64,000 bases of DNA. Source: a virus. Positions 4,610 through 48,422 of this stretch are shown here, in pieces; the first letter of the stretch is position 1; each line of letters starts with the position of its first letter. The translations under genes and the position numbers were made by a program. Below the pieces are notes generated by a model. It saw only the letters and a list, made by a program, of their open reading frames with translations. It made no database searches and had not been told where the DNA came from. The stretch covers positions 26,630-90,629 of IMG/VR virus record IMGVR_UViG_3300029177_000001; one strand, 5' to 3'.

Positions 4610-5647
4610 ATGATAAAAGGTAAAACAGATTTTGAAAAGGTATCGGATTTTGAAAATTTATATAAAGCGTATTTGGATTCAAAAGGTGGAAGAGGATTCA
4701 CAAAAAGCAGAATTAAATTTGAAATATCTGCCCTTGATGGGGTGTACCAGATTAAAAGACTTTTAGAAACAAAGAGATATGAAGTAGATAGATATAACAG
4801 ATTCAAAGTATATGAACCAAAAGAGAGAATTATAGAAGCAGGAAGTTTTAAAGACAAGATTGTGCAGCACAGTTTGTGTGACAATGTACTTCTTCCTATT
4901 TTAAGTAAGGAGTTTATATACACGAATTATGCTGGACAAGTAGGTAAAGGGACATTGTTTGGCTTAGACTGTTTGAAATATCAGATGTATTTAGCATATC
5001 AAAAATATGGATATGATTGCTGGATTATCAAAGGAGATATCAAAAAATTTTTTTATAATATTGAGCATGATGTTTTGAAAGATATTGTTTCTTACTTTAT
5101 ATCAGATTCAGATACATATTGGCTGTGCGAGAAATTCATTGATAGCACAAGTGAAAAAGGTCTACCGCTTGGAAATCAAGTTAGTCAGGTATTTGCTTTG
5201 TTATATCTCTCTGGTTTTGATCATTTTATAACCGGAGAATTAGGAATTAAATATTACGGGAGATACATGGATGATTTTTACTTAATTGTAGAATCAAAAG
5301 ATTATGCAAAATTCTGTTTACATGCTGCTGAAGAGTTTACTAAAACATTAGATATTGATCTGAATGAAAAAACTCAGATTATTCCTTTTAAAAATGGAAT
5401 TAAATTTTGTGGTTTTCACACCTATGTTACAAAAGATGGAAAAGTGATAAGAAAACTTGCAAATGAAAAGAAGAGAAAAGCAAAAAAGAAATATCGAAAA
5501 ATGGCAAAGATGTTAAGAGAGAATAAGTTATCAAAAGAAAAATTCCTAGAATCTTATGAATCTTGGAAGAATCATATTTCACATGGAAATTGTGTGAAAT
5601 TCACGTATGAGATGGACAAAATGGTGAATGAAATACTGTTTGGTTGA
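4610..5647 (+). CDS. DGR reverse transcriptase
   Basis: Motifs 'LPLGNQVSQVFALLYL' ([LIV]GxxxSQ, DGR hallmark), 'GRYMDDFYLIV' (YMDD) and 'IKFCGFH'. About 345 aa, typical DGR RT size. Confidence 0.93.
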   Translation: MIKGKTDFEKVSDFENLYKAYLDSKGGRGFTKSRIKFEISALDGVYQIKRLLETKRYEVDRYNRFKVYEPKERIIEAGSFKDKIVQHSLCDNVLLPILSKEFIYTNYAGQVGKGTLFGLDCLKYQMYLAYQKYGYDCWIIKGDIKKFFYNIEHDVLKDIVSYFISDSDTYWLCEKFIDSTSEKGLPLGNQVSQVFALLYLSGFDHFITGELGIKYYGRYMDDFYLIVESKDYAKFCLHAAEEFTKTLDIDLNEKTQIIPFKNGIKFCGFHTYVTKDGKVIRKLANEKKRKAKKKYRKMAKMLRENKLSKEKFLESYESWKNHISHGNCVKFTYEMDKMVNEILFG

Positions 5648-6624: not shown

Positions 6625-6695
6625 TGTGGATTAGTGTAACTGGTAGCACGATGCAGCGTGGCACATAAGTAAAGGTTCGATTCCTTTATCTACAA
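6625..6695 (+). tRNA. tRNA-like element with aberrant anticodon arm (possible pseudo-tRNA)
   Basis: Hand fold: 7-bp acceptor tgtggat/atctaca, U8, D arm gtgt-aactggta-gcac with GG, and perfect T arm aaagg-TTCGATT-ccttt. The 20 nt between position 26 and the T arm give no 5-bp stem with a 7-nt loop. No encoded CCA. Confidence 0.4.
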
Positions 6696-12959: not shown

Positions 12960-13778
12960 ATGGATAACAGCAATTTAGCAAAAAGAATGAAACAATATGA
13001 AAGTGTTTCAAAATCAACATTGATAAGACGTATGCCAGTGATCATCAGGCTTGACGGTAGAAGTTTTCATACATTTACAAAAGGGTTTAAAAGACCATTC
13101 GATGATGTATTAGTAAAAACAATGCAAGAGACAATGAAATACCTTTGTGAAAATATTCAAGGATGTGTATTAGGTTATACGCAGTCTGATGAAATTACAC
13201 TTGTGTTAGTAGATTATAAGAACTTAGATTCTCAACCTTGGTTTGATGATGAAGTGCAGAAGATATGTAGTATTGCAGCAAGTATGGCAACTATGGCTTT
13301 TAATAAAAATTTTGAACTTTTTTCTTTAACGATGCGATTAAAAGACTCTGTAGAAAGTAATAAACTTGGTGCAGTATATAAACAAGCAATGAATAAAGGT
13401 GCAATGTTTGATGCAAGATGTTTCAATATTCCAAAAGAAGAAGTAACTAATAATATTTACTGGAGACAACTTGATGCAACGAGAAATTCTATTCAAATGG
13501 TAGGACAAGCTAATTTTTCACATAAAGAATTACAGAATAAATCGTGCAATCAAATTCAAGACATGTTATTTACACAAAAAGGAATTAACTGGAATGATAT
13601 TTCTACATATTTAAAAAGAGGAAGTTGCTGCATTAGAGAAAATTATATTTTTGAAAATTCAAACCCAAATGGTGAGACGTGTGTAGAACGAAGTCGTTGG
13701 ATAATCGACAAAGAAATCCCTATTTTTAAGGGTGAGAATAGAGAATATATTAATAGATTGGTATATGTAGGAGAATAA
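12960..13778 (+). CDS. tRNA(His) guanylyltransferase family protein (Thg1-like, 3'-5' nucleotidyl transferase)
   Basis: 'MKQYESVSK...RMPVIIRLDGRSFHTFTKGFKRPFDDVLVKTMQETM...GYTQSDEITLVL' matches the Thg1/TLP N-terminal catalytic pattern (RxDG..F, KP.D, SDE). Confidence 0.85.
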   Translation: MDNSNLAKRMKQYESVSKSTLIRRMPVIIRLDGRSFHTFTKGFKRPFDDVLVKTMQETMKYLCENIQGCVLGYTQSDEITLVLVDYKNLDSQPWFDDEVQKICSIAASMATMAFNKNFELFSLTMRLKDSVESNKLGAVYKQAMNKGAMFDARCFNIPKEEVTNNIYWRQLDATRNSIQMVGQANFSHKELQNKSCNQIQDMLFTQKGINWNDISTYLKRGSCCIRENYIFENSNPNGETCVERSRWIIDKEIPIFKGENREYINRLVYVGE

Positions 13779-20351: not shown

Positions 20352-21491
20352 GTGGTGAGAAAAATTAAAGTATATAAAGATAAACAATATCTTGTTTTTG
20401 AATATGATGGAAAAATTGTTAAATATGATTTAGCAAATAAAGTAGGTATTGGTTTAAAGGGTAAACCAGTAAAAGGTTTGCAGCGACAACTTAAAGATAT
20501 AAAGATTAAAGATATTATTGAATCATGTGAAGACAAAAACTACTCAGAGTTTTTAAAATACATATATAAAAAATATAGTAAATATATATGCAATTCTGGA
20601 ACATTTCTTTCTATGATTAATGAAAACAAGCATTTAGAACAATTATTTTCTTCCGGTTTAAAAGCAAGTCAAATACCATATAAGTTTGATTATTCATTAA
20701 ATGATATTCCAAAGTCACTTATTAAAATTGCAAAAGAACGAGAAATAGAATTATCAGAATCATTAGTTAAGTATTGGAAACATAATATTGATGCTCATTA
20801 TATTGCGTTCCAAACAGAGTTTATTTCATTGACTGATAAAAATCTAATTGAACTTTTTACATATGAAAAAAATTTTGGAGATTATAGAATTCCAAACTAT
20901 CAATCCGTATTTAATTATTTGATTGATGTATATAATTACAACCCCAAATCTCTTCTTATGTACATTGATTCACTAATAACATATGAAGCAATAGATAGTA
21001 TTGGATATATAGCAAGAGAACTTTATGATTATGTGAAAATGATGAGTACGATCAGTAGTAAATTTGATAAATATCCAAGAAATTTTTTGACAACGCATAA
21101 AATTGCCTGTAGAAACTACAATCGTTTAAAGCAGGAGTTTTCAGAAGAACTGTTTAAGAAAAGAATCAGAACAGATTATGAGTGCGTATATAAAGGATAT
21201 CAATTTGTATATCCAAAATCTATACAAGAAATTAAAGACGAAGCTGTTCAACAACATAATTGCGTTGCTTCTTATATTGATGATGTTATCAATGGGAAAT
21301 GTCATATTCTATTTTTGAGAAAAAGAGATAGTTTAGATAAGAGTTTGGTAACTATTGAAGTAAATACATATACAGAAACTATTGTACAAGCCAAAGGAAA
21401 GTTTAATAGAGATACAACAGAAGAAGAGAATAAAGTAATAGAAGCATGGAATAAAAAGTTTTCAATTAAAAGAGAGGAGATGGCGGCATGA
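20352..21491 (+). CDS. PcfJ-like domain protein
   Basis: C-terminal 'EIKDEAVQQHNCVASYIDDVINGKCHILFLRKRDSLDKSLVTIEVN...IVQAKGKFN' matches the PcfJ-like pattern. Confidence 0.6.
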   Translation: MVRKIKVYKDKQYLVFEYDGKIVKYDLANKVGIGLKGKPVKGLQRQLKDIKIKDIIESCEDKNYSEFLKYIYKKYSKYICNSGTFLSMINENKHLEQLFSSGLKASQIPYKFDYSLNDIPKSLIKIAKEREIELSESLVKYWKHNIDAHYIAFQTEFISLTDKNLIELFTYEKNFGDYRIPNYQSVFNYLIDVYNYNPKSLLMYIDSLITYEAIDSIGYIARELYDYVKMMSTISSKFDKYPRNFLTTHKIACRNYNRLKQEFSEELFKKRIRTDYECVYKGYQFVYPKSIQEIKDEAVQQHNCVASYIDDVINGKCHILFLRKRDSLDKSLVTIEVNTYTETIVQAKGKFNRDTTEEENKVIEAWNKKFSIKREEMAA

Positions 21492-22499: not shown

Positions 22500-24335
22500 A
22501 TGGTAGAAAATAAAGATAAAAAATATAATTCAGATAAACATTGGGAACTTGTAAATTTTTGTGAATTTGATAAGTATGCAACAAAAAGCTACTGTGCAAT
22601 TCACGATGTAGATGAAAGTAAAAATCTTGGTGATATCACAAAGGTCGATGAAACTGAATTAGATGATTTTAATATGATTTGTGGAGGATCACCGTGCCAG
22701 GATTTCAGCGTGGCAGGAAAACAAAAGGGGTCTGTATGGACTTGTAAAGATTGTGGACATGAATATAATCCATTAACAGTTCATTGGAGTAAAAGAGATT
22801 GTTGTCCGAATTGTAAAAGCGAAAATATTGAAAAAACAAGATCATCTCTTCTTGTAGAATATTTACGAGTAGTTAGAGCAAATAAACCTAATTTTGGAAT
22901 TTATGAGAATGTAAAAAATATTGTTGGGAAACAGTTTAAAGATACAACTTTTAAATTATTTACTGATGAATTAGAGGAATATGGATATAACGTATATTGG
23001 AAGGTTTTGAATGCTAAAAATTATGGAATTCCACAGAACAGAGAACGTGTATATCTATTATTTATTAAAAAGGATTTGGATAATGGTAAGTTTGAATTTC
23101 CGGAACCTTTTGATAATGGTCTGAGATTGAAAGATTTATTAGAAGATAAAGTTGATGAGAAGTTTTATATTTCTGATGAGAAAGTTAATAGATTTATTAC
23201 AAATTTAAATGACAAAAATTCTTTATTATATGATCCATGCCAAGTAAAAAGAGAAGGAAAGAGCAGAGAATATTCTGAATATGCACCAACATTAACTTCG
23301 AGAGATTATAAAGATCCAAGATTAGTAAATGAAAATGTTGTAAGACAAGTTGGAAATATTTCCGATTGTAATGGAGCATGGGACAATCCGCAAGTAGGGA
23401 GAGTTTATGATGTAAGTGGTTGCAGTCCAACATTGAATACATGCAGTGGTGGTGGTCATGAACCGAAGGTTATTACAGGAATTGATAAGTCATATAACAA
23501 TCCAAAATTCATTGAAACAGCTAATTGTATTACTTCACGAGAAGATCGTGGTGTTTCAAATAGGGAATCCGAAGGTACAGCAGTTTTAGAAACTCCAAAT
23601 ATTAGTTATTGTTTGGATTCTAACTATTACAAAGGAACAACAATAGAACAATATATGAATAAACATCGTAGACAATTGATAGTCGAAAATAATAAAGTTG
23701 CAATCAGACAAGCCACTAAGCAAGGTTATATCGAATGTGAAGTAGGTGGAGTTGCAGATTTGTCTTATCCAGACAGTAAAACTAGAAGAGGCCGAGTACA
23801 GGATAATGGGAATACATGTCCGACAATTACTGCAACAGAAACAGGCATTTGTAGAATTGAGCCTAAAGAAAGATTTTTTAAACAAGCACTTGAAACTTTA
23901 AATGAAAATGATTGTAACTCTGGAGATACAATTAATGCATTTAATAAACATGTAGATAAAAGTGGGTATTCTCCTACATTAACAACAAGACCAGAAGGAT
24001 TTAAAACAGCAATTCTACCAGTTACAGATGATATTAGAATTCGTAAGCTAACTCCAAAAGAGTGTTTCAGGCTCATGGGATTTTCTGATGAAAATTTCGA
24101 TGCAGCACAGAAAGCAGGAGTTTCAAATAGTCAATTATATAAACAGGCAGGTAATTCAATTGTGGTAGATGTTCTTTATTACATATATGTAGAGTTATAT
24201 AAAGCTATGCCTTATTTGTTTGATGATCTGAAATTAAGTAGTTTCTTTTCAGGAATTGGCGCTTTTGAGATTGCGCTTGATAAATTATATAAAGGTATCA
24301 ATTCCGGAAATTTTATCAATCCACAGACAGAGTAA
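22500..24335 (+). CDS. DNA (cytosine-5)-methyltransferase, SPR-like with several TRD-like modules, motif I at the C-terminus
   Basis: 'GGSPCQDFSVAGK' (IV), 'ENVKN' (VI), 'QNRERV' (VIII), 'RKLTPKECFRLMGF' (IX), 'LYKQAGNSIVVDVL' (X), then 'LSSFFSGIGAFEIAL' (I) at aa 580-594. About 330-aa variable region with repeated T(L/I)T modules. Zn-ribbon insert 'CKDCGH...CCPNCK'. Confidence 0.9.
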   Translation: MVENKDKKYNSDKHWELVNFCEFDKYATKSYCAIHDVDESKNLGDITKVDETELDDFNMICGGSPCQDFSVAGKQKGSVWTCKDCGHEYNPLTVHWSKRDCCPNCKSENIEKTRSSLLVEYLRVVRANKPNFGIYENVKNIVGKQFKDTTFKLFTDELEEYGYNVYWKVLNAKNYGIPQNRERVYLLFIKKDLDNGKFEFPEPFDNGLRLKDLLEDKVDEKFYISDEKVNRFITNLNDKNSLLYDPCQVKREGKSREYSEYAPTLTSRDYKDPRLVNENVVRQVGNISDCNGAWDNPQVGRVYDVSGCSPTLNTCSGGGHEPKVITGIDKSYNNPKFIETANCITSREDRGVSNRESEGTAVLETPNISYCLDSNYYKGTTIEQYMNKHRRQLIVENNKVAIRQATKQGYIECEVGGVADLSYPDSKTRRGRVQDNGNTCPTITATETGICRIEPKERFFKQALETLNENDCNSGDTINAFNKHVDKSGYSPTLTTRPEGFKTAILPVTDDIRIRKLTPKECFRLMGFSDENFDAAQKAGVSNSQLYKQAGNSIVVDVLYYIYVELYKAMPYLFDDLKLSSFFSGIGAFEIALDKLYKGINSGNFINPQTE

Positions 24336-34054: not shown

Positions 34055-34261
34055 ATGAAAAAGAACTTTAAAATTACAGGATTCTCAGCATTTATATTTA
34101 TCAACATTCTGTTCTCCATTCAATGTTTGCTTGTATGTGGAGCAATGAAATTATTAACGTTGATTTTGCCTATTGATTTCAATCTGGAATTAACAGTTGT
34201 GACATTTACAGTATGTAAGGCATTTCAGATTATTGGATGTTCTGTTAGATCTAGGGAGTAA
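34055..34261 (+). CDS. small membrane protein
   Basis: 'ITGFSAFIFINILFSIQCLLVCGAM'. acggaga RBS. Confidence 0.5.
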   Translation: MKKNFKITGFSAFIFINILFSIQCLLVCGAMKLLTLILPIDFNLELTVVTFTVCKAFQIIGCSVRSRE

Positions 34262-34273
34262 AAAACGAAAGAG

Positions 34274-34705
34274 GTGTCAAAAGAATTGTGGATTAGCAGA
34301 AAAAGATTTAAAGAGTTGGAAGAGAAGTACAAGAGATTAGAACAAATACAAGATACTCAAAATAATTATTTAAATCGTATAGAACGCATAGAAAGAATTA
34401 TGAAAAATGCAAGGGACGGAAAAGTAAATTACGTAAGAAAAAATAGATCTTGTGTCAGCATCAATGATTATCTTATGGATGAGTTATATTACATTTATTT
34501 AGATAATTTAGAGTATGAAATTTCAGTACCGTTTTTACAAAAAATATATGATGTTAAAAGAACGAAAAATAAAAATGTTGTTATTGTCATGAGTAGAGAA
34601 AATACTACAGATGATGATCCTGTATATTGTAATTTTGTCATTGATTTGCAATCAGGAGATAAGGTAGAGATTACATTGGATGAAGTAAATAAATTGAAAA
34701 TTTAG
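34274..34705 (+). CDS. hypothetical protein
   Basis: GTG start. Plus-strand array. Confidence 0.5.
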   Translation: MSKELWISRKRFKELEEKYKRLEQIQDTQNNYLNRIERIERIMKNARDGKVNYVRKNRSCVSINDYLMDELYYIYLDNLEYEISVPFLQKIYDVKRTKNKNVVIVMSRENTTDDDPVYCNFVIDLQSGDKVEITLDEVNKLKI

Positions 34706-34728
34706 TTTCGTTTGGAGGACGAAGAATA

Positions 34729-35085
34729 ATGGGAGTAGAATTTTATACATGTGACAATTGCGGAACAACATTTCCAGATTGTGGGGAATACGTATCATGT
34801 GAAACTTGTCGGACAAAATGGCGTTGTGATGAATGCGCTGAAGAAGATGGTTATGTGAGAGAACATTGTAAATTGCATCCAGATTTAGATGATTATGACC
34901 TTATGTATGAATATAGAAAAAAACATTGTAAATACGACAGTTGTACAGACTGTGAGCATTATGTGCCTGATAGCTGCAAGTATTGTAGAAAAGAAGATTA
35001 TCCTGACAATGTGTTACTGGATTATTGCATGGAATTACTCGGTGTTACAAGAGATCAGTTAGTTGAGAAATATAATAATAGGTAA
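34729..35085 (+). CDS. Cys-rich (multi-CxxC) protein
   Basis: 'CDNCG...CETCRTKWRCDEC...CTDCEH...CKYC'. ggaggac RBS. Confidence 0.55.
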   Translation: MGVEFYTCDNCGTTFPDCGEYVSCETCRTKWRCDECAEEDGYVREHCKLHPDLDDYDLMYEYRKKHCKYDSCTDCEHYVPDSCKYCRKEDYPDNVLLDYCMELLGVTRDQLVEKYNNR

Positions 35086-35090
35086 AGAGT

Positions 35091-36119
35091 ATGAATCTGA
35101 AACAAATTAAAGAAACGATAAAGAAACAAGAATATGATTTCTTAAAAGAGAATGAGCACTTAGGTAACAATATTATCTTACTTACGCTTGGCGGCAGTCA
35201 CGCATATGGAATGGATAAAGAGGACAGTGATTTAGACGTAAGAGGAGTTACACTAAATAGCAAAGAGGAAATTCTTCTTGGAAAAGACTTTGAACAGGTT
35301 GTAGAGATTGATACAGATACGACAGTTTATTCATTCAATAAAATTTTACAATTACTAAAATCAAACAATCCTAACACTATTGAAATTTTAGGATGTAAAC
35401 CTGAGCATTATTTATATTTGTCTGATGTTGGAAGAGAATTGTTAAATAATAGAAAAATGTTCTTATCCAAGATTTGTATTAATTCTTTTGCAGGATACGC
35501 TTCAAGTCAATTAAGGCGTATGGAGAACAAAGCTGCTAGATTAGTTGGACAAGCACAAAATGAAGAGTACATTTTAAAATCAATTAATAATGCAAGTTAT
35601 GATTTTAAAAATCGTTATTTCCCAATGAATGATGGATCACTCAATCTTTATACAGATAAAGCAGTACAGGAAGGCTATGACACTGAAATTTTTATGGATA
35701 TTGACTTGCGACATTATCCTCTAAGAGATTGGGCTGGTATGTGGAATGAGATGAAAGCTATTGTAAGTAGTTATAACAAAATCGGTAGGCGAAACGAAAA
35801 AGCAATGAACAAGGACAAACTTGGAAAGCATATGGCTCATTTGATCAGATTATACATGATGTGTATTGACATTCTTGAAAAAGAAGAAATTATCACTTAT
35901 CGAGATAAAGAACATGATCTACTTATGAGTATACGAAACGGAGAATACTTAGATATCAATAGGCAGCCAACTTCTGAATTTTATGATTTGCTAAATGAAT
36001 ATGAAAAACGATTCGATTACGCTAAAGAAAATACTTCGTTGCCAAATGTACCGGACTACAAGAGAATCGAAGAGTTTAAAATGTATGTAAATGAACGAAT
36101 TGTGAAAGGAGATATATAA
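35091..36119 (+). CDS. PF10127 (RlaP)-type nucleotidyltransferase
   Basis: 'ILLTLGGSHAYGMDKEDSDLDVRGV' is a Pol-beta-superfamily NTase G[SG]..YG...SD.D motif as in the PF10127 family. Confidence 0.7.
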   Translation: MNLKQIKETIKKQEYDFLKENEHLGNNIILLTLGGSHAYGMDKEDSDLDVRGVTLNSKEEILLGKDFEQVVEIDTDTTVYSFNKILQLLKSNNPNTIEILGCKPEHYLYLSDVGRELLNNRKMFLSKICINSFAGYASSQLRRMENKAARLVGQAQNEEYILKSINNASYDFKNRYFPMNDGSLNLYTDKAVQEGYDTEIFMDIDLRHYPLRDWAGMWNEMKAIVSSYNKIGRRNEKAMNKDKLGKHMAHLIRLYMMCIDILEKEEIITYRDKEHDLLMSIRNGEYLDINRQPTSEFYDLLNEYEKRFDYAKENTSLPNVPDYKRIEEFKMYVNERIVKGDI

Positions 36120-37081
36120 TGGATATTTCTGAAAAACTGAAAGAACGTTTCTGTAAAGATTGTAATATTCCATTGAAACTATTTAAGGAACCATATTTTA
36201 CAGACAGACTTCAATTATATGATAACTATTACAATACATTGGATAAATGGAATATTTTTGTAAGAGAATTAGATAAATATAAGTGTGAGCAAGATTATCT
36301 TGAAGAATATAATCGAGTAAAGAATGCTGCAATAAAGGACATTAAAGATTCTGATGGTTACAAGAGATTTAATGTAGAAGACATGAATAAGTACACAGTA
36401 AAATACAAAGATCTTCCGGGAAAAGATATTTATAAACCATCAAACATCGGAAAACTGTTTATCAGTATTGATATGAGAAAGGCAAATTTTTCAGCATTAA
36501 AATTTTATGATAAAAGTATTTTTAGTAACTCTGATACATGGGAAGAATTTATTGAAAGATATACGGAGAATAAACATATCGTAAACAGCAAATATATTAG
36601 ACAAGTCATTCTTGGAAACTGTAATCCTAAAAGGCAGGTGACTTATGAAAAATATTTGATGGGTCTTGTATTAGAAGTTCTTATTGATGAATTAGGATAT
36701 TCCACTAGTGATATTGCGTTTTACTCTAATGATGAAATTGTTATTGATATGGGAAAATATAAAGGCTGTATAAATAAACAAAAAATATTAGAAATGGCAG
36801 TTAACGTACGTTTTAATATTCCATTCAGGATTGAATTGTTTTACTTACACAAAATTACTGGTACAGATGGATATTACAAGGAAATTGTAAAAAATATTAT
36901 TGAAATAGAATATGAATTTAAATGCTTAAACAATTATACATTACCATTTGTGCTGAGAAAGTTTAATGGAGAAGAAATCACTGAAAACGATAAAGTATTT
37001 TATCATGAAGGGCTACTATCAAAGTTTATGGAAGTACCAAATATGGAGGTAAAATTGAATGAAAATAAATATTCCGTCTGA
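36119..37081 (+). CDS. hypothetical protein (possible palm-type nucleotidyltransferase)
   Basis: Coupled on both sides (ATG overlaps upstream stop; 23-nt overlap with cca). 'ISIDMRKANFSAL' and 'FYSNDEIVID' are loosely reminiscent of family-A polymerase motifs A and C. Very tentative. Confidence 0.55.
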   Translation: MDISEKLKERFCKDCNIPLKLFKEPYFTDRLQLYDNYYNTLDKWNIFVRELDKYKCEQDYLEEYNRVKNAAIKDIKDSDGYKRFNVEDMNKYTVKYKDLPGKDIYKPSNIGKLFISIDMRKANFSALKFYDKSIFSNSDTWEEFIERYTENKHIVNSKYIRQVILGNCNPKRQVTYEKYLMGLVLEVLIDELGYSTSDIAFYSNDEIVIDMGKYKGCINKQKILEMAVNVRFNIPFRIELFYLHKITGTDGYYKEIVKNIIEIEYEFKCLNNYTLPFVLRKFNGEEITENDKVFYHEGLLSKFMEVPNMEVKLNENKYSV

Positions 37082-38396
37082 TGCAAATGAGTTGATTCAT
37101 ACACTTCAAAATCACGGAAATTCCGCTTATGTGGTAGGTGGTTGTGTAAGAGATAGCATCATTGGAAGACAAATTCACGATTGGGATATTTGTACATCTG
37201 CAACACCAGACGAAATGCTGGAGATTTTTAAGGATAAAAAAGTAATTGAAACTGGCTTAAAACACGGAACTATAACTGTTGTGGTAAAAGGAGAATCATA
37301 TGAATTAACAACATTTCGTATTGATGGAAAATATTCTGATAGTCGTAGACCTGATTCAGTAATTTTCACAAGTAGTTTAATTGAAGATTTAAAGAGACGT
37401 GATTTCACAATCAATGCAATGGCATATAATGATGACGAAGGATTAATTGATCCATTTGGGGGATTAGAAGATATTGAATATAAAAAAATTCAATGTGTAG
37501 GTTCTGAAAAAGATAGATTTGGAGAAGATGCTTTAAGGATCTTGAGAGCAATTCGTTTTGCTTCTCAACTTGAATTTGTGATGACCCCGGAAACAAGTTA
37601 TGAAATCAATAAACAATACAAAAATTTGAAGAATATTTCGATTGAGAGAATAAATAGTGAGTTTTGCAAAATCGCCGCATCAAGAGATTTCTGTGTAGAA
37701 ATGGTTTTATATAAAGATGTGTTTGCATTGTTTATACCGGAATTAAAAGATATGTTTGAATTCCAACAGAATAACCCATATCACGATTATGATGTTTACA
37801 GTCATACAGTACATTCAATTGAACATTGTAAATCCGATAATTTGGTTGTTAGATTGGCGGTTTTCTTTCATGATATTGGAAAACCTCATTCATTTCAAGA
37901 TGGCGAAGACGGTATTAGACACTTTAAAGGACATGGAAAAGTTAGTGCAGACATTACAGACAATATTATGAAACGTCTCAAATTTGACAATGAGACAAGA
38001 AATAATGTGGTTGAATTGGTGTATTACCATGATGCAACCTTTGAGGTTGGTAAAAAATATGTGAGAAGATGGATCAATAAGATTGGAGTAGAACAGTTTA
38101 GAAGACTATTGGAAGTTAGGAAAGCAGATATTTTAGGGCAGAAAGAATCTTATGAGCAGTATAGGATTAACAAAGTTAATAATATTAAACAAATTCTTGA
38201 AGAAGTTCTACGAGAAGAAACATGTTTTACACTTAAAGATTTAGCTGTCAATGGCAACGATTTAATGAGTATTGGTTATAAAGAAAACAAAGAATTAGGC
38301 AATACACTAAATGAATTATTACGATTAGTAATTGATGAAGAATGTCCTAATAAAAAAGAAAAATTATTAGAAGTAGCAATTGAAAGGAGAATGTAA
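37059..38396 (+). CDS. cca: CCA-adding enzyme (tRNA nucleotidyltransferase) with HD domain
   Basis: 'YVVGGCVRDSIIGRQIHDWDICT', 'RRDFTINAMAY', 'EDALRILRAIRFASQL' and HD 'FFHDIGKP'. ggaggt RBS. Confidence 0.9.
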   Translation: MKINIPSDANELIHTLQNHGNSAYVVGGCVRDSIIGRQIHDWDICTSATPDEMLEIFKDKKVIETGLKHGTITVVVKGESYELTTFRIDGKYSDSRRPDSVIFTSSLIEDLKRRDFTINAMAYNDDEGLIDPFGGLEDIEYKKIQCVGSEKDRFGEDALRILRAIRFASQLEFVMTPETSYEINKQYKNLKNISIERINSEFCKIAASRDFCVEMVLYKDVFALFIPELKDMFEFQQNNPYHDYDVYSHTVHSIEHCKSDNLVVRLAVFFHDIGKPHSFQDGEDGIRHFKGHGKVSADITDNIMKRLKFDNETRNNVVELVYYHDATFEVGKKYVRRWINKIGVEQFRRLLEVRKADILGQKESYEQYRINKVNNIKQILEEVLREETCFTLKDLAVNGNDLMSIGYKENKELGNTLNELLRLVIDEECPNKKEKLLEVAIERRM

Positions 38397-39302
38397 TTGA
38401 TTAAATTATTCACACACCGGGATTTAGATGGAATTGGTTGTGCGGTTCTGGCACAATTGACATTTGGTAAAAATGTAGATATTACATATTGTAACTATGA
38501 TGAAGTAGATTCTCTTGTGAAAGAATACATTACCAAAATGGACAAAGATCATGATACGTGTTTTATTACAGACATTAGTATTAAGGATGATTTGGCTTCT
38601 GAGATTGATAGAGAATATAAAAATAATTTCAAATTATTTGATCATCACAAAACAGCATTAGAACTCAATAAATATGATTGGTGTACTGTTGAAACAGAGA
38701 ATAATGATACAGGTCTTATGACAAGCGGTACAGAATTATTTAGTAAATATCTGATTGACCATAAATATTTAGATGTGGATGTAAGTGATTTTGTAAGAAT
38801 TGTAACAGATTACGACACATGGAGATGGTCAACACTTGGTAAGGACGGACTCGTTTCAAAAGATGTAAATGACTTGTTGTATTTATATGGAAGAGAAAAA
38901 TTTGAAACGTGGTGTATTAGATGTATTGAATCTGGCAGATTTCCTCATTTTGACCAAGAGTCAAGTTTGATGTTGTCATTTAATAGGAATGAAATTGAAA
39001 AATATATCAAAGAAAAAGATAAGACAATTATTGTTAAGTGCAATGGAGAATATATGTATGGTGTTGTTTTTGCAGATAAATATATCAGTGAATTAGGTAA
39101 TGAATTATGTAAATTGAATAGAGAACTTGATTATATTGCAATTGTAAATATGAGTACACGTTCAGTTTCTTATAGAACTATCAAAGATGATATTGACATG
39201 GGTATGATTGCAAAGAAATATGGAGGCGGTGGTCATCCAAAAGCAGCAGGATCAAAATTTGATGTTTATAAACTTGCAAGATTTCTTGATGAGTTGTTGT
39301 GA
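38397..39302 (+). CDS. DHH-family phosphoesterase (NrnA-like)
   Basis: 'THRDLDGIGCAV', 'FITDIS', 'LFDHHKT' and 'YGGGGHPKAAG' (DHHA1 GGGH). Confidence 0.8.
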   Translation: MIKLFTHRDLDGIGCAVLAQLTFGKNVDITYCNYDEVDSLVKEYITKMDKDHDTCFITDISIKDDLASEIDREYKNNFKLFDHHKTALELNKYDWCTVETENNDTGLMTSGTELFSKYLIDHKYLDVDVSDFVRIVTDYDTWRWSTLGKDGLVSKDVNDLLYLYGREKFETWCIRCIESGRFPHFDQESSLMLSFNRNEIEKYIKEKDKTIIVKCNGEYMYGVVFADKYISELGNELCKLNRELDYIAIVNMSTRSVSYRTIKDDIDMGMIAKKYGGGGHPKAAGSKFDVYKLARFLDELL

Positions 39303-39319
39303 TATGGAGAATAAGAAAT

Positions 39320-39679
39320 ATGGAGCTGACAAGAGAAGAAGCGGTTTCAGAACACAGAAAAATGTGGAACTGGATTGCAGATAAGATTGAAGAAGAAAAG
39401 AGAGATCAAGATATCTTTGATTTAAAAGAAGAATATTGTAATAGAGAAGGATATAACGACATAAGAAGCGATTGTTTTTGTTGTGGATATACAAAATACA
39501 TTTGTGATTATTGTCCTATCGAGTGGGGAAGTGAGGTTGAATATTTTATGTGTCTTGATAAATATGAAGACAACGATTACAAAGGATTGTATTCATTATG
39601 TTGTAACGAATCAGATTGGAGGGAACAGGCAAAATTAGCAAGACAGATTGCAAATCTACCAGAAAGAGAGAATGTGTAA
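39320..39679 (+). CDS. hypothetical Cys-rich protein
   Basis: ORF track 39299..39679. ATG 39320 after tggaga. Confidence 0.5.
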   Translation: MELTREEAVSEHRKMWNWIADKIEEEKRDQDIFDLKEEYCNREGYNDIRSDCFCCGYTKYICDYCPIEWGSEVEYFMCLDKYEDNDYKGLYSLCCNESDWREQAKLARQIANLPERENV

Positions 39680-39680
39680 T

Positions 39681-40043
39681 ATGGATAGATTATATAGAAC
39701 AGAATTAGGGGTTAGTTTAGACATATACGATAAATGCCCTACGTGTAGTATTTGCTGGAATTGTGATATCCCAGTAAGAGAATGTGGATACATGTACGAT
39801 GCACTAGAAAAACTTGCAGAATATGAAGATACAAAATTGACACTTGAGCAGATACGGAACCTGAATGAGCGTGACACAGCGAAGAAACCAGATATCGAGG
39901 GAGACGGGTATGCTCCAGATGGAACATTTATATATGACACCTGGATCTGTCCAAACTGTAATGAACATTACGAGATTGATTACGATGACTATGATTTTTG
40001 TCCGAAGTGTGGACAAAGAATTGATAGGAGTGAATTGAAATAA
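39681..40043 (+). CDS. zinc-ribbon protein
   Basis: ORF track 39648..40043. ATG 39681 avoids overlap. 'CPTCSICWNC' and 'CPNCNE...CPKCGQ'. Confidence 0.5.
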   Translation: MDRLYRTELGVSLDIYDKCPTCSICWNCDIPVRECGYMYDALEKLAEYEDTKLTLEQIRNLNERDTAKKPDIEGDGYAPDGTFIYDTWICPNCNEHYEIDYDDYDFCPKCGQRIDRSELK

Positions 40044-40136
40044 AATGGCGAATAAGAAATGCAACAATTTAAAAATTCAAAAATTTGTATTTCACGAACC
40101 CGCATGGTTGCTACGTTTGTTGGAGGTGAAAATCGA

Positions 40137-40382
40137 ATGAAACTGGAATTTCAAACGGAGAATAAAGATACAAAGGTGATATCTCATCCAAGAAGCAGAA
40201 AAGAACTTTGGAGGGATATACATAAAGTACTAGAAGACATGGGATTCAAAACCTATTACCAGAGATTGTATATGGAGAATGATAAATTAAAAATAGATTT
40301 TGGATCACACACTGAATTCTTCTATGTGACTGATTTAACAGTTTCAGATCTGAGAGAGTTATCAATTGAAATTATCAATTGA
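40137..40382 (+). CDS. hypothetical protein
   Basis: ORF track 40059..40382. ATG 40137 after ggaggtga. Confidence 0.5.
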   Translation: MKLEFQTENKDTKVISHPRSRKELWRDIHKVLEDMGFKTYYQRLYMENDKLKIDFGSHTEFFYVTDLTVSDLRELSIEIIN

Positions 40383-40601
40383 GTAAGATAATTCACGTAT
40401 AAAATTGCAAATCAATAGTTTCTATAAATTCAAATTATAGAATTAAATAATTTAAAAATTTGTCGTGAAAGTGCGACAGTTTCTTAAATGCACCCATTTT
40501 TGGGGTTTTACATAGAAATTTACATATTAGTAACTCTATGCTCCGGCTGCTGTGCGGTCGTTCACATATATAAATATACATACAAAAGGAGATTTTATTT
40601 T

Positions 40602-41789
40602 ATGGCAAGAAAAGAAAAAGCAGTTTTAGAAAAAAAAGGATGGTCAAATTCATTTGTACTGGTTGGAGAGGCAAAAATTAATGCTGATTATACATACAAA
40701 TTGGATGAACATTCTGAGAAATCAGATTGGGTTTACAATTCATTAAATCTTGGTGTTGATTGCGGAGATGTATGCGGAACAGTTTATGCCGAATTGATGG
40801 GCGGATATGGTGCAGAACGAGACAATGTTGTTTATGTCCATGGTAAAGACGCAGATGGCAAGGATGATTTTGAAAACAGATTTACTATTGATTGGGATGA
40901 CAGGTTTGATGAAAAAATCTTGGAGTCTGTCGGAGATTTATGTTTTATGACTGTCGGTCTTGAAAAGGATAAAAATGAAAAGGTGTTTTACAAAAAATTC
41001 TTAACACCATATGACATGATCGCTTATATCAATGAAAATCTAGAGGATGGAATGGTTGTTAATGTAAAAGGACAGCTTAAATATTCTTCATACGAAGGCA
41101 GTGTACAGGTAAAAAAAGAAATTTCAAGTCTTGTGCTTTCCAAAGTAGATGACAGAAGTAAGTATCATGCAAACTTTACACAGACAATGTTGCTTACAAG
41201 AGATAGTGTTGGCAAGCCAGACAAATCAACAGGAATTTTGCCAATCTATGCAAAGATTCTCGATTATGTAAAAGAGTATAAAGGAAAAGAAGTTAGATGC
41301 AATATTCCATATGATAAAGCATTTGAATATGAACTCGATTTAACTAAACCGGAGATGTCACAGAAAGTAATCGAAAAACTTTTTAAAGTGAAAAAGGGAG
41401 TTACAGAAATTACATTTGAAGGAGATTTGATTGAAGGCGGAGCAGTAGTCACAGCAACAGAAGATGATATTCCAGACGACATCAAAACTCTTATTGAGAT
41501 TGGTGTATTCACTTTAGAAGAAGCTCTTCAGAAATGTACTGTTAATTCAGGAAGAGAAAGGAGAATGGTTATTAGAAGACCACAGATTAAAAATGTTGAG
41601 GGAAAAGATGGGACAAAAACTCCAGTCCTCCAGAAGTTTGAACAGAAGTACGACGAAGATGATTTGATTCTTGATTTTATGTATGAAGAAGAATCAGAAG
41701 ATGAAAATAGTGATGTTTACGTCGAAGACGAATCTGAGGATGTTGCAGAAAATCCAAATGATATGTCATGGCTTGATGCACTTGGATAA
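40602..41789 (+). CDS. replication-module protein with acidic C-terminal tail (possible ssDNA-binding protein)
   Basis: ORF track 40488..41789. ATG 40602 after aaaggaga. First gene of the replication block. Tail 'EEESEDENSDVYVEDESEDVAENPNDMSWLDALG'. Function inferred from position and tail only. Confidence 0.6.
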   Translation: MARKEKAVLEKKGWSNSFVLVGEAKINADYTYKLDEHSEKSDWVYNSLNLGVDCGDVCGTVYAELMGGYGAERDNVVYVHGKDADGKDDFENRFTIDWDDRFDEKILESVGDLCFMTVGLEKDKNEKVFYKKFLTPYDMIAYINENLEDGMVVNVKGQLKYSSYEGSVQVKKEISSLVLSKVDDRSKYHANFTQTMLLTRDSVGKPDKSTGILPIYAKILDYVKEYKGKEVRCNIPYDKAFEYELDLTKPEMSQKVIEKLFKVKKGVTEITFEGDLIEGGAVVTATEDDIPDDIKTLIEIGVFTLEEALQKCTVNSGRERRMVIRRPQIKNVEGKDGTKTPVLQKFEQKYDEDDLILDFMYEEESEDENSDVYVEDESEDVAENPNDMSWLDALG

Positions 41790-41796
41790 AAGCATT

Positions 41797-41870
41797 AAAA
41801 AGTCTACGCAGCACAAGACTGCGTAGACAGCAAATAAAACACAAATACATTGAATAATTTGGAGGATAGA
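41797..41870 (-). ncRNA. candidate antisense small RNA (copy 2) overlapping the RBS of ORF 41875
   Basis: Minus strand: conserved core (complement of 41835-41863), 10-bp hairpin (41828-41819/41811-41802), UUUUU (complement of 41801-41797). Upstream promoter weak (TATATT only). Confidence 0.35.
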
Positions 41871-41874
41871 ATAT

Positions 41875-42987
41875 ATGGCAAGAAAATTTGGAAAGAAAAA
41901 AGAAGTGAAAATTGATCCATTAGCTTACAACATTGGACTGGCAGGATTATCTGGTATCGGTAAAACTACTCTTATTAAAAATGTATGTGAGGAACTTGTT
42001 GGAGAAGACGGATATTTAATGTTGGATATCGGGAAAGAAAGTGGACATGATTGTATTGATGGAATTGTGAGTGAAGAATGTGCGGACTGGGAGAAGTTAG
42101 ATGAAGTTCTTGATGACATTATTGACAATAGAACAACAGATTACAAAGATTTGAAAGTGATTGTTTTCGATACATTAGATGAATTATTTACAATTGGAGA
42201 GGAAGAAACGATTGCACAGTGGAATCGATCAAATCCGGACAAACGAACCAAAACAATTAACAGTGTAAATGGCGGATTTGGGAAAGGTCTTGATGCCTGT
42301 ATTGAAATGGTATTAGACAGAATTTGGTCTTTAAAAGATGTTGGAATTTCATTCATTGTAATTGTACATACAAAAACAAAAGACGTGGAAGATCCAATTA
42401 CAGGACAAACATATCAGGTTATTACAGCAAATATGCCACAAAGATATTTTAATGCAATCAAAACAAAATTAGATATTTTTGGTGTTGCATATATTGACAG
42501 AGATATTGTAACAGAAAAACTTGGTAGAAAAGATATTAAAGGAAAAGAAATTACAAGGAACGTTGTTTCAAAAGAGGCACGTAAAATTGCATTCAGATCA
42601 GATAATTATAATCTTGATAGTAAATGCAGATTTCCAGAAATTGTAAGCGAAATCGATCTTGATCCACATCAGTTTATCCAGGCAATTACAGATGCTATCA
42701 AAGCAGAACAAGCTAAATCAGGTAAATCATTTGAAGAATCTGAAAAAGAACAGGCTGCAAAGGAGGCAGAAGAAATGAAAGAACTGGCTAAAAAAGAGGC
42801 AGAAAAGAAAGAAGAGAAAAAAATTGAGTTTGTGATTGATCAGATTAAAGATTTTATCAAAGACAATAAGGGGAATATGGAAGCAATTAAACCATTGCTT
42901 GAATTTTCAAAAGAAAATGGATATGCGAACCCAACTTTAATTGACGATTTATCAATTGCGGAACAGGCATTGAAAATTATTGCTTAA
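41875..42987 (+). CDS. AAA_24 / Sak4-like RecA-fold ATPase
   Basis: 'YNIGLAGLSGIGKTTLIKNV' (Walker A), 'LKVIVFDTLDE' (Walker B). Size and position typical of phage AAA_24 recombination ATPases. Confidence 0.7.
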   Translation: MARKFGKKKEVKIDPLAYNIGLAGLSGIGKTTLIKNVCEELVGEDGYLMLDIGKESGHDCIDGIVSEECADWEKLDEVLDDIIDNRTTDYKDLKVIVFDTLDELFTIGEEETIAQWNRSNPDKRTKTINSVNGGFGKGLDACIEMVLDRIWSLKDVGISFIVIVHTKTKDVEDPITGQTYQVITANMPQRYFNAIKTKLDIFGVAYIDRDIVTEKLGRKDIKGKEITRNVVSKEARKIAFRSDNYNLDSKCRFPEIVSEIDLDPHQFIQAITDAIKAEQAKSGKSFEESEKEQAAKEAEEMKELAKKEAEKKEEKKIEFVIDQIKDFIKDNKGNMEAIKPLLEFSKENGYANPTLIDDLSIAEQALKIIA

Positions 42988-47321: not shown

Positions 47322-48422
47322 GTGGAGAAGAATTATGTACCAACTAAAGAAGAGTTGTACAACGAGATTATTAGAGTATATAAGAAATGCGAAAAAATGA
47401 ACAAGATAATTCTAAAGGAAGAATCTAATATAGAAATAAGTGATTATTGTTTACATAAGCATGGAGGACTACAAAAGATATGTAAGGAATTGAATATACC
47501 ATTTACATTCCACCAAAGAGTTGATCATAAGGATGTTGTTCAAGATTTATTGAGGGTATTTAATGAGCATCAATATTTAAGTACAGAAAGTTATAAGAAA
47601 TACGGTAAATATTCTGTTACCTGCGTTAAAGATCATTTTGATGGATCTTTTAATAAAGCATTAGAAACTCTTAATTTACCTATTAATATGTATAAGAATG
47701 TTACGAAAAAAGATATTAAAGATGACGTTTTAGAAATATTTAAAGACAAAAAAGTTAGTAGTACTGTTTACAGACGCGATGGCAAATATTCACAATCTAC
47801 CATTGAACGATTATTTGGTTCATGGAAAGGACTAATGAAAGAAATGGATTTGCCATATACTTCACATGATTATGGATTTGATGAAATGTTAAGGCAATTA
47901 AATAATGTGTATGAAAAATATGGATGCATAAATAAAACACTGATAGATGAGGAATGTGACTTTACTTATCAGGCATTGAAATATTATATAAAAGATAAAG
48001 AAGAACTATGTAAATTACTTAATAAAGAAAATTTGTTTTCAGATTCTTTGAGTGTAAAAGCTAATCTTTTAAGACGTATATTATATTTATTATTCGGAGA
48101 TGAAAATATTGAATCTGAAAAAACATGGAGTTGGTTAAAAAATGATAAAACTCAAAAAAATCTATATGTTGATTTCTATATAGATAAATTTAATTTAGCA
48201 ATTGAATACGATGGAATACAACATTACAAGATGTATACAAGTTTTCATAGAACTGAACAAGATTTCATTGACTCTTGCGCTAGAGATAAATTAAAAGAAA
48301 AACTTTTAAAGCAACACAAAATTGATTTAATAAGAATCCCATATACATTAAAGTTATGTGAAAAAAATGTAAATAATCTTGTAATTAGCAACTTATTAAG
48401 TAAGAATGGAACGAAAATATGA
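47322..48422 (+). CDS. free-standing homing-endonuclease-like protein (4 HEN-associated repeats + DUF559/Vsr-like nuclease domain)
   Basis: Four repeats of about 55 aa ending in '...G(G/S)(L/F/W)(Q/N/K)K(I/A/G)...L(N/D)(I/L)P(F/I/Y)'. C-terminal 'LYVDFYIDKFNLAIEYDGIQH...IDLIRIPY' is DUF559-like. Confidence 0.6.
   Translation: MEKNYVPTKEELYNEIIRVYKKCEKMNKIILKEESNIEISDYCLHKHGGLQKICKELNIPFTFHQRVDHKDVVQDLLRVFNEHQYLSTESYKKYGKYSVTCVKDHFDGSFNKALETLNLPINMYKNVTKKDIKDDVLEIFKDKKVSSTVYRRDGKYSQSTIERLFGSWKGLMKEMDLPYTSHDYGFDEMLRQLNNVYEKYGCINKTLIDEECDFTYQALKYYIKDKEELCKLLNKENLFSDSLSVKANLLRRILYLLFGDENIESEKTWSWLKNDKTQKNLYVDFYIDKFNLAIEYDGIQHYKMYTSFHRTEQDFIDSCARDKLKEKLLKQHKIDLIRIPYTLKLCEKNVNNLVISNLLSKNGTKI

Follow-up and report, generated by a model that had tools for sequence, protein, structure and literature searches.

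This locus raises the question of whether four closely packed genes, which encode a PF10127 nucleotidyltransferase (RlaP), a 320-aa protein (ORF2), a CCA-adding enzyme and a DHH phosphoesterase, act together in RNA 3′-end chemistry, and what the second of them might be. The genes lie within a 64-kb stretch of DNA, referred to here as the window, from a ∼160-kb gut phage of Lachnospiraceae. We confirmed the four ORFs, all on the plus strand, and their junctions (Table 1). The RlaP stop codon overlaps the ATG of ORF2 by 1 nt (TAATG), ORF2 and cca overlap by 23 nt, and the TAA of cca is directly followed by the TTG of the DHH gene.

Table 1. Positions of the four genes, of the ribosome-binding-like sites ahead of them and of the distal Thg1 gene in the window
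Feature	Position	Strand	Description
RlaP ORF	35091..36119	+	Pol-beta nucleotidyltransferase, 342 aa
ORF2	36119..37081	+	Undescribed minimal palm+fingers polymerase-like protein (predicted), 320 aa
cca	37059..38396	+	Class II CCA-adding tRNA nucleotidyltransferase (predicted), C-terminal HD domain, 445 aa
DHH gene	38397..39302	+	DHH/DHHA1 phosphoesterase, NrnA/NrnB-like, 301 aa, TTG start
Shine-Dalgarno-like AAAGGAG	36105..36111	+	7 nt before ORF2 ATG; read from sequence
Shine-Dalgarno-like GGAGG	37045..37049	+	9 nt before cca ATG, in ORF2 3′ end; read from sequence
Shine-Dalgarno-like AAAGGAG	38383..38389	+	7 nt before DHH TTG; read from sequence
Thg1/Thg1-like 3′-5′ nucleotidyltransferase	12960..13778	+	272 aa; shares the functional theme from a distance

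The original prediction took these junctions as the sign of one translational unit of four genes. This was not supported, as genes are packed in this way throughout the genome, including those on either side of the block. Among the 100 plus-strand junctions of the window, 29 overlap or abut (≤0 nt) and 49 are ≤10 nt. The gene upstream ends 5 nt before RlaP, the two junctions next downstream also overlap, and the tightly packed array (32546–40382) reaches beyond the four genes in both directions. A promoter/terminator scan found no terminator-like site within this array, showed no enrichment and did not delimit the four-gene unit. Tight coupling is not specific to RlaP, ORF2, cca and DHH. The four genes do not form a fixed set either: in the closest clade a 78-aa ORF stands in place of CCA, DHH is absent from many loci, and ORF2 is deleted in three loci (L073, L074 and L076) where RlaP is kept.

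The predicted enzyme identities fared better. For RlaP, the PF10127 assignment was upheld by the Pfam profile score (E 8.9e-21, 75.1 bits, cut-off 23) and by the Pol-beta nucleotidyltransferase active-site signature hG[GS]...D-x-[DE], which reads LGGSHAYG...SDLDV in the translation; the protein also matched phrog_388 (1.6e-47). RlaP enzymes add 1–2 NMP to the 3′-OH of RNA and not to DNA, a property described for Pseudomonas enzymes only (bioRxiv 10.64898/2025.12.29.696909). The cca product scored 302.5 bits against the NF009814 equivalog (cut-off 290) and contains PF01743 (PolyA_pol head, 7e-40), PF13735 (tRNA_NucTran2_2, 2e-12) and PF01966 (HD, 4.7e-07). Its best PDB sequence matches were the CCA-adding enzymes of Planococcus (E 8e-60) and Geobacillus (2.5e-58), and the PcnB and A-adding models scored far under their cut-offs. 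The head-domain motifs A (GGxVRD...DxD), B (RRD) and D (EDxxR) appear in its translation as GGCVRD, DWD, RRDFT and EDALR. The equivalog match and the motifs bear out the annotation, and from its sequence the protein is predicted to be a bona fide class II equivalog.

We observed that the DHH protein fell under the Pfam DHH cut-off (26.2 bits against 28.1) and just over that of DHHA1 (26.0 against 25.9). The annotation was sustained, though these Pfam scores are weak, by the match to phrog_4771 (8e-30) and by all the DHH motifs (DxD, D, DHH and GGGH, present as HRDLDG, FITD, FDHHK and YGGGGH in the translation). Its proposed membership in RNA repair is only a loose link. A homologue annotated nrnB follows rtcB in the Clostridioides phage AR1086-1 (OR397124.1; C. 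difficile phage), and homologues in three other lineages occur in replication or unknown contexts; as to the proposed degradation of cyclic-oligonucleotide signals, a PADLOC search gave no relevant match. The distal Thg1 gene was confirmed by its match to PF04446 (2.5e-33, 115.2 bits, cut-off 29.2; Thg1C 1e-4).

PF10127 nucleotidyltransferases had also been expected beside RNA-repair ligases. In relatives, Rnl lies near the cluster (L002, L029/L030, L055, L098 and L291) and a kinase-HD gene is also nearby; in the window, tblastn with the Rnl-type RNA ligase and kinase genes of L002 found no match. As no ligase was found in the window and RlaP is coupled to ORF2 and CCA, the arrangement points to 3′-terminal rather than anticodon-loop repair. 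The broader theme of RNA 3′-end chemistry stands on the published RlaP activity, the CCA equivalog, Thg1 in the window and Rnl and kinase-HD in relatives.

ORF2, which had been listed as an unknown protein, belongs to a conserved family of putative polymerase-like enzymes and is the gene that accompanies RlaP most constantly. Its structure model shows the palm of a right-hand polymerase, into which fingers are inserted: helices (5–92) are followed by palm and fingers, in a topology that agrees with the published RRM-palm description. In the model D118 ends the strand 113–119, K158, R161 and G166 lie on the helices of 122–191, and D205/E206 are at the 199–210 hairpin, so that the acidic residues of the palm superfamily are present both where strand 1 ends and in the β2–β3 hairpin. 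Among 150 sequences, D118 is conserved in 145, D205 in 147 and E206 in 149, and K158, R161 and G166 are each kept in at least 145. N123 or F124 is a candidate for the steric-gate residue.

At the sequence level, ORF2 and 43 relatives had no consistent match in Pfam, PHROGs, NCBIfam, PADLOC or PDB sequences, and the family, whose clusters number more than 1,500, is not covered by current domain libraries. Although palm and fingers resemble those of family B, we rejected membership of that family by sequence: no profile matched in the 44 members and the motifs differ (DxxSLYPS, KxxxNSxYG and DTD in family B; SIDMxKANF, SKYIRQVxxG and xDE in ORF2). Unlike family B DNA polymerases, the ∼310-aa protein lacks the N-terminal 3′-5′ exonuclease and a canonical thumb domain. 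The longer family members P0124 to P0256 have no recognisable extra domain. In the Mollyvirus homologue Mo0101_0218 (hhalign probability 97.4%, catalytic residues retained), a DEDDy 3′-5′ exonuclease domain is found at the C-terminus. Structural matches in BFVD include Klosneuvirus A0A1V0SKG9 (TM 0.84, E 3e-17), R3H domain-annotated proteins and Medusavirus A0A3T1CWG1, annotated as a DEDDy 3′-5′ exonuclease; Thg1 was not among the structural matches listed. These giant-virus and megaphage proteins (Klosneuvirus, Medusavirus and Mollyvirus), which are known by annotation, share the fold or family of ORF2 but are longer. Searching GenBank phages with ORF2 (tblastn) returned 4 records only and a metagenome scan close relatives only; the profile scan of genome contigs used an alignment of 8 sequences, and the distant members P0264, P0266 and P0238, each used alone as a query, gave no matches in viral scans. 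T4 NrdC.10 was dropped as a detectable homologue, there being no T4 match by tblastn. Two further roles were discarded: that of the phage replicative polymerase, since the replicase of this phage is Pol III alpha, and that of a non-catalytic RlaP partner, since its catalytic-type residues are kept and copies also occur on their own.

Next, we compared the gene neighbourhoods of ORF2 across lineages. RlaP and ORF2 are adjacent in ∼30 of the 48 ORF2 clusters, in both gene orders, and CCA, Thg1 or an RNA ligase often stands beside the pair. In most related loci an RlaP orthologue, 74–98% identical, directly precedes ORF2, and RlaP–ORF2–CCA recurs in the distant lineages L098, L100, L102, L191 and L192. 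The order is reversed (ORF2–RlaP) in L099, L190 and L218. Thg1 is next to RlaP/ORF2 in L193 (as ORF2–RlaP–Thg1), L058–L060 and L249/L271/L272, the order Thg1–RlaP–ORF2 also occurring, and next to ORF2 without RlaP in L219/L220. An RNA ligase follows in L291 (RlaP–ORF2–CCA–Rnl) and in L096/L097 (ORF2–Rnl). About one-third of the sampled lineages have ORF2 without an RNA-repair neighbour, for example Salicola phage SCTP-2, L110 and L196 (helicases); in L087 it adjoins a NAD-dependent DNA ligase and in L088 a chromosomal copy lies between rlmH and ruvAB. Since a single phage group supplies most of the loci sampled, part of this synteny reflects inheritance and not independent selection. RlaP, ORF2 and CCA form a recurrent gene cluster. 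From the model and these neighbourhoods, we infer that ORF2 is a miniature enzyme of polymerase-like type, not described before, whose gene stands beside tRNA-end repair genes in many phages; its polymerase fold and its association with RNA repair are both well supported.

How these genes are related in function can be read in several ways. We consider it somewhat probable that the block is the core of a phage RNA (most likely tRNA) end-repair cassette, in which ORF2 is a new polymerase component. The folds closest to ORF2, those of DNA polymerases of families B and Y, also suit a small gap-filling, translesion or end-processing DNA polymerase that works on DNA of the phage or host and sits by RlaP and CCA only through the clustering of auxiliary nucleic-acid genes in phage early regions. 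The S-x-D-E motif and faint IMS matches in 2 of 44 family members, the stand-alone copies by ruvA/ruvB, NAD-dependent DNA ligase and SNF2/UvrD helicases, and the DEDDy exonuclease fusions, which are typical of DNA polymerases, agree with such a role. We regard it as unlikely, as ORF2 accompanies the RNA-specific RlaP, CCA, Thg1 and Rnl in varied orders and in distant lineages, RlaP is inactive on DNA, and the exonuclease is fused at the C-terminus, which is not its place in A- and B-family DNA polymerases.

Less likely again is that the four are independent neighbours in a co-directional array, with CCA maturing or maintaining tRNAs, DHH acting on nanoRNA/pAp or signalling nucleotides, RlaP taking part in ligase-based anticodon-loop repair and ORF2 unrelated to them. 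The ordinary tightness of the junctions, the possible separate loss of each gene, the DHH homologues in replication contexts and a tRNA-like gene without encoded CCA (6625–6695) would fit this. Against it, the RlaP–ORF2 adjacency outlasts rearrangement and at least 55–60% sequence divergence, and the pair is joined by Thg1, CCA or Rnl in differing combinations, which argues for a shared function of RlaP and ORF2. Finally, it appears highly improbable that ORF2 acts as a GGDEF/Cas10-like palm-domain enzyme, a nucleotide cyclase or oligonucleotide synthase, and makes a small nucleotide product for which DHH would be the phosphodiesterase: polymerase matches outscore cyclase-type ones and align ∼2-fold more residues, the fingers insert that carries K...R...G and separates strand 1 from the hairpin is a feature of polymerases, and DHH is absent from most of the distant ORF2 contexts.

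If the block is an RNA end-repair cassette, its enzymes could act in series. A host or competitor nuclease would trim or damage tRNA 3′ ends; Cas12a3, which trims tRNA tails up to the discriminator, is a precedent for such damage. The broken end would be healed to a 3′-OH, a step that the CCA enzyme might perform with its HD domain; DHH may remove frayed nucleotides or dispose of nanoRNA/pAp. ORF2 would then extend the recessed 3′ strand in the 5′→3′ direction on the acceptor-stem 5′ strand as template, RlaP would add the untemplated discriminator nucleotide and the CCA enzyme would rebuild CCA. In mirror image, the Thg1-like protein would repair the 5′ strand from a template. The substrate of ORF2 and the templated fill-in step are conjecture.

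Phage RNA repair has so far been understood to consist of end-healing and ligation, untemplated tailing by RlaP and CCA enzymes, and 5′ repair by Thg1. A conserved and abundant polymerase-like family wired into RNA-repair clusters would add a templated 3′-synthesis step, and such synthesis would explain how viruses could outlive nucleases (Cas12a3-type, HEPN, Schlafen-like and CdiA-type) that cut into the tail or acceptor stem of tRNAs. For the long-sought enzyme of templated tRNA 3′ editing, ORF2 offers a concrete, clonable candidate of ∼310 aa. We put forward only tentatively that its family may be the first template-dependent 5′→3′ RNA-repair polymerase, rebuilding the tRNA acceptor-stem 3′ strand in series with RlaP and CCA and mirroring Thg1-like proteins. 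It could then be a means, carried by viruses, of countering immunity that cleaves tRNA tails, with a spread that runs from gut phages to giant viruses, and a candidate prototype of the templated tRNA 3′-editing activity.

Known systems resemble parts of this proposal. The RlaP operons (Pseudomonas RtcB–RlaP–RtcA, T4 NrdC.11 and RlaP by 5′-P RNA ligases) contain the same PF10127 family, and RlaP is predicted there to put back the nucleotides that broken RNA ends have lost; the partner in those operons is a ligase, whereas here the partners are a polymerase-like protein and a CCA-adding enzyme. Thg1-like proteins perform templated 3′-5′ repair of tRNA 5′ ends. Like ORF2, they are small palm-domain enzymes proposed to rebuild one acceptor-stem strand from the other; they belong to a different family and have the opposite polarity, and the two co-occur. 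For templated tRNA 3′ editing, a templated polymerase, untemplated addition of N73 and CCA addition have been postulated (PMC4284800). In the mitochondrial tRNA 3′ editing of Lithobius and Seculamonas, nuclease removal is followed by templated synthesis of the 3′ strand, an untemplated discriminator and CCA (PMC4284800). The enzyme types predicted here match this eukaryotic pathway as an analogy only.

All four plus-strand ORFs of the original prediction were present at the positions assigned to them (see the table), and the annotations held for three of them, RlaP, CCA and DHH. RlaP scored 75 bits with PF10127 (cut-off 23) and matched phrog_388 at 1.6e-47. The CCA-adding enzyme was assigned to class II (NF009814, 302.5 bits; cut-off 290); it has a PolyA_pol head, tRNA_NucTran2_2 and HD domains, and its top PDB sequence matches were the Planococcus and Geobacillus CCA enzymes. 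The Pfam score of the DHH/DHHA1 phosphoesterase (DHH) was weak, yet it matched phrog_4771 (8e-30) and every DHH and GGGH motif was intact. The Thg1-like gene at 12960-13778 is also real. No Rnl-type RNA ligase or kinase-HD gene was detectable in the 64-kb window.

The junctions are as tight as had been described: RlaP and ORF2 share 1 nt at TAATG, ORF2 and cca overlap by 23 nt, and the TAA of cca is directly followed by the TTG of DHH. A Shine-Dalgarno-like sequence lies 7-9 nt upstream of each of ORF2, cca and DHH. The packing gave no support to the claim that the four genes form one translational unit. The window has a coding density of 93% on one strand, and of its 100 junctions 29 abut or overlap (≤0 nt) and 49 measure ≤10 nt; the gene 5′ of RlaP stops 5 nt before it, and the next two junctions 3′ of DHH overlap too. 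Because tight packing is common across the window and extends beyond the four genes, such a unit cannot be deduced from it. The tight array spans 32546-40382, where a promoter/terminator scan found neither a terminator-like site nor an excess of promoter-like sites.

Features of the four-gene region and other elements of the window
Feature	Position	Strand	Remarks
RlaP ORF	35091-36119	+	342 aa
ORF2	36119-37081	+	320 aa
CCA ORF	37059-38396	+	445 aa
DHH ORF	38397-39302	+	301 aa, TTG start
GmrSD_N-like ORF, weak	1413-2876		
Reverse transcriptase ORF	4610-5647	+	345 aa, RVT_1 E 1e-13; ~1 kb 5′ of tRNA-like element
tRNA-like element (Rfam tRNA match)	6625-6695	+	46.9 bits, E 7e-07; no ARAGORN call
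PcfJ-like ORF	20352-21491		
C5 cytosine methylase	22500-24335		N-terminal zinc ribbon
SPFH/Band_7 protein	31608-32450		
Weak terminator-like hairpin	40460-40479	+	3′ of tight gene array
Perfect palindrome	41802-41828		11-bp stem, GTCTACGCAGTCTTGTGCTGCGTAGAC; between ORFs 40488-41789 and 41875-42987
HNH-repeat homing-endonuclease-like ORF	47322-48422		inserted between PD-(D/E)XK nuclease and Pol III alpha genes

The tRNA-like element has an anticodon arm that is one nucleotide short or irregular. It has no encoded CCA (…CUACAA then TTC) and so, if functional, would depend on a CCA-adding enzyme. A Band_7 gene lies ~2.5 kb 5′ of RlaP in relatives too (locus L001), and the related loci L001 and L002 have GIY-YIG or HNH_3 genes elsewhere in the replication module.

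ORF2, previously left as a protein of unknown function, belongs to a family of 1,577 representatives (50% identity, E≤1e-3), 402 of them at E≤1e-30. A 44-sequence sample of this family gave no match to Pfam, PHROG, NCBIfam or PADLOC models or to PDB sequences. In the family alignment we observed the motifs F-I-S-I-D-M-x-K-A-N-F, S-K-Y-I-R-Q-V-I-x-G-N-C-N-P and S-N-D-E-I-V, followed by K268 and D291. Conservation was nearly complete (n = 150) at D118 (145), N123 (145), K158 (148), R161 (149), D205 (147), E206 (149), K268 (145) and D291 (149). D118 is predicted to lie at a strand end; in the model K158, R161 and G166 are on the helices after this strand, forming a fingers insert, and D205/E206 are at a beta-hairpin. 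As modelled, this arrangement is that of a canonical RRM-palm, and together with the strong constraint on catalytic-type residues it indicates that ORF2 is a minimal palm-plus-fingers polymerase-like protein. By sequence it does not belong to family B. The phage replicase is Pol III alpha, encoded together with DnaB, a Toprim primase, a RecD2-like helicase and an NAD-dependent ligase, so ORF2 would be an accessory enzyme.

A BFVD fold search with ORF2 returned strong giant-virus matches, including a Klosneuvirus 'R3H domain protein' (TM 0.84, E 3e-17), a Medusavirus protein annotated as 'DEDDy 3′-5′ exonuclease', and proteins of Hyperionvirus, Barrevirus, Clandestinovirus, Pandoravirus, Tupanvirus and Moumouvirus. 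The megaphage Mollyvirus protein Mo0101_0218 matched the family profile with 97.4% probability, kept the conserved residues and has a C-terminal DNA_pol_A_exo1 domain. This exonuclease fusion and the R3H/exonuclease annotations of the structural matches point to a family acting on nucleic-acid 3′ ends.

The window falls within a group of phage contigs of ~150-190 kb, and related sequences were also found in Lachnospiraceae genome assemblies. We scanned 200 related loci, a sample dominated by one phage group, for RlaP, ORF2, CCA and DHH using profiles built from the window proteins. The RlaP-ORF2 junction was retained in nearly all of them; CCA comes next in most clades whose ORF2 is 55-62% identical to that of the window, and DHH next in about half of the loci. 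RlaP was adjacent in ~30 of 48 ORF2 clusters (75% identity clustering; mostly one phage group). The order RlaP-ORF2-CCA recurred in Ruminococcus and Clostridia MAGs with ORF2 only 41-42% identical, and an unrelated contig carried PF10127, then ORF2, then PolyA_pol. Other loci had ORF2-RlaP (L099, L190, L218), ORF2-RlaP-Thg1 (L193), Thg1-RlaP-ORF2 (L058-L060, L249, L271, L272), ORF2-Thg1 without RlaP (L219/L220) and, with domains confirmed, RlaP-ORF2-CCA-Rnl (L291) and ORF2-Rnl (L096/L097). The RlaP/ORF2 association thus outlasts rearrangement and deep divergence. The clade closest to the window (L001-L004, L009-L013, L015, L062) often lacks cca, which suggests recent gain or loss of this gene, and has an ORF of 78-110 aa in its place between ORF2 and DHH (e.g. 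L001 10948-11184). In a separate observation, L002 (505-2739) has an RNA ligase (PF09414; homologues with a PHA02142-type OB domain) adjoining an AAA_33/KTI12 kinase, whose C-terminal part faintly matches the HD region of the window CCA enzyme (tblastn, window 37782-37949); the kinase looks like a Pnk-HD end-healing enzyme.

ORF2 also occurs without RNA-repair partners, in Salicola phage SCTP-2 (gp208) and locus L110, among helicases (L196) and adjoining an NAD-dependent DNA ligase (L087). On a Lachnospiraceae chromosome (L088 7001-7960) a lone homologue is flanked by rlmH (SPOUT methyltransferase) and ruvA/ruvB, a stand-alone position that suggests a domesticated cellular copy. Another (L093 5153-6937), directly 3′ of an AAA_21/AAA_15 ATPase and DUF4276 pair and followed by a gene for a 1,201-aa DUF4132 protein, is possibly within a defence island. 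Some homologues (L094 6413-7912 and L104, 499 aa; family protein P0124, 496 aa) are extended at the N or C terminus by ~190 aa, a stretch that had no Pfam match. The copies adjoining DNA-repair genes, together with the nearest folds, which are DNA polymerases of families B and Y, favour the main rival explanation. This casts ORF2 as a small DNA repair polymerase, and we nevertheless judge it unlikely.

The RlaP-ORF2 pair is not strictly obligate, since ORF2 is deleted or reduced to 19-49 codons in L073, L074 and L076 with RlaP intact; L073 keeps CCA and DHH as well despite this loss. A DHH homologue directly follows rtcB in Clostridioides phage AR1086-1, those of three other lineages lie in replication or unassigned contexts, and the linkage pattern of DHH differs from that of RlaP/ORF2/CCA. 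Of the lesser rivals, four merely independent neighbours seem distinctly improbable, and we give very little credence to ORF2 as a cyclase-type synthase paired with DHH. We lean, with modest confidence, towards an RNA-repair cassette in which ORF2 would be an active polymerase component.

CCA enzymes restore CCA, Thg1-like proteins repair tRNA 5′ ends via templated 3′-5′ synthesis, and immune nucleases that trim tRNA tails, cutting up to the discriminator, exist (e.g. Cas12a3). RlaP enzymes add 1-2 NMP to RNA 3′-OH, preferring damaged-tRNA mimics, and DNA is not a substrate (bioRxiv 10.64898/2025.12.29.696909). ORF2 is predicted to provide the missing templated step, copying the 5′ strand of the acceptor stem to lengthen a recessed tRNA 3′ end. 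RlaP would follow with the unpaired discriminator, and the CCA enzyme would finally rebuild CCA. Phosphorylated ends may be healed by the HD domain of this last enzyme, and DHH may serve to trim or remove small products. This specific acceptor-stem fill-in by ORF2 is a tentative and rather doubtful proposal.

Earlier work has discussed RNA-repair or counter-signalling functions for RlaP, CCA, Thg1, PTH2 and DHH of large phages (PMC7824862), and hence the general framing of the original prediction is known biology. In four domain libraries and the RlaP-related literature we found no prior description of the ORF2 family or of its linkage to RlaP, CCA, Thg1 or Rnl; the family may add a new polymerase-like component to the RNA-repair systems of viruses. 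Template-dependent tRNA 3′ editing, a postulated pathway whose enzymes are unidentified, follows the same three-activity logic as the one proposed here for ORF2, RlaP and the CCA enzyme (PMC4284800).
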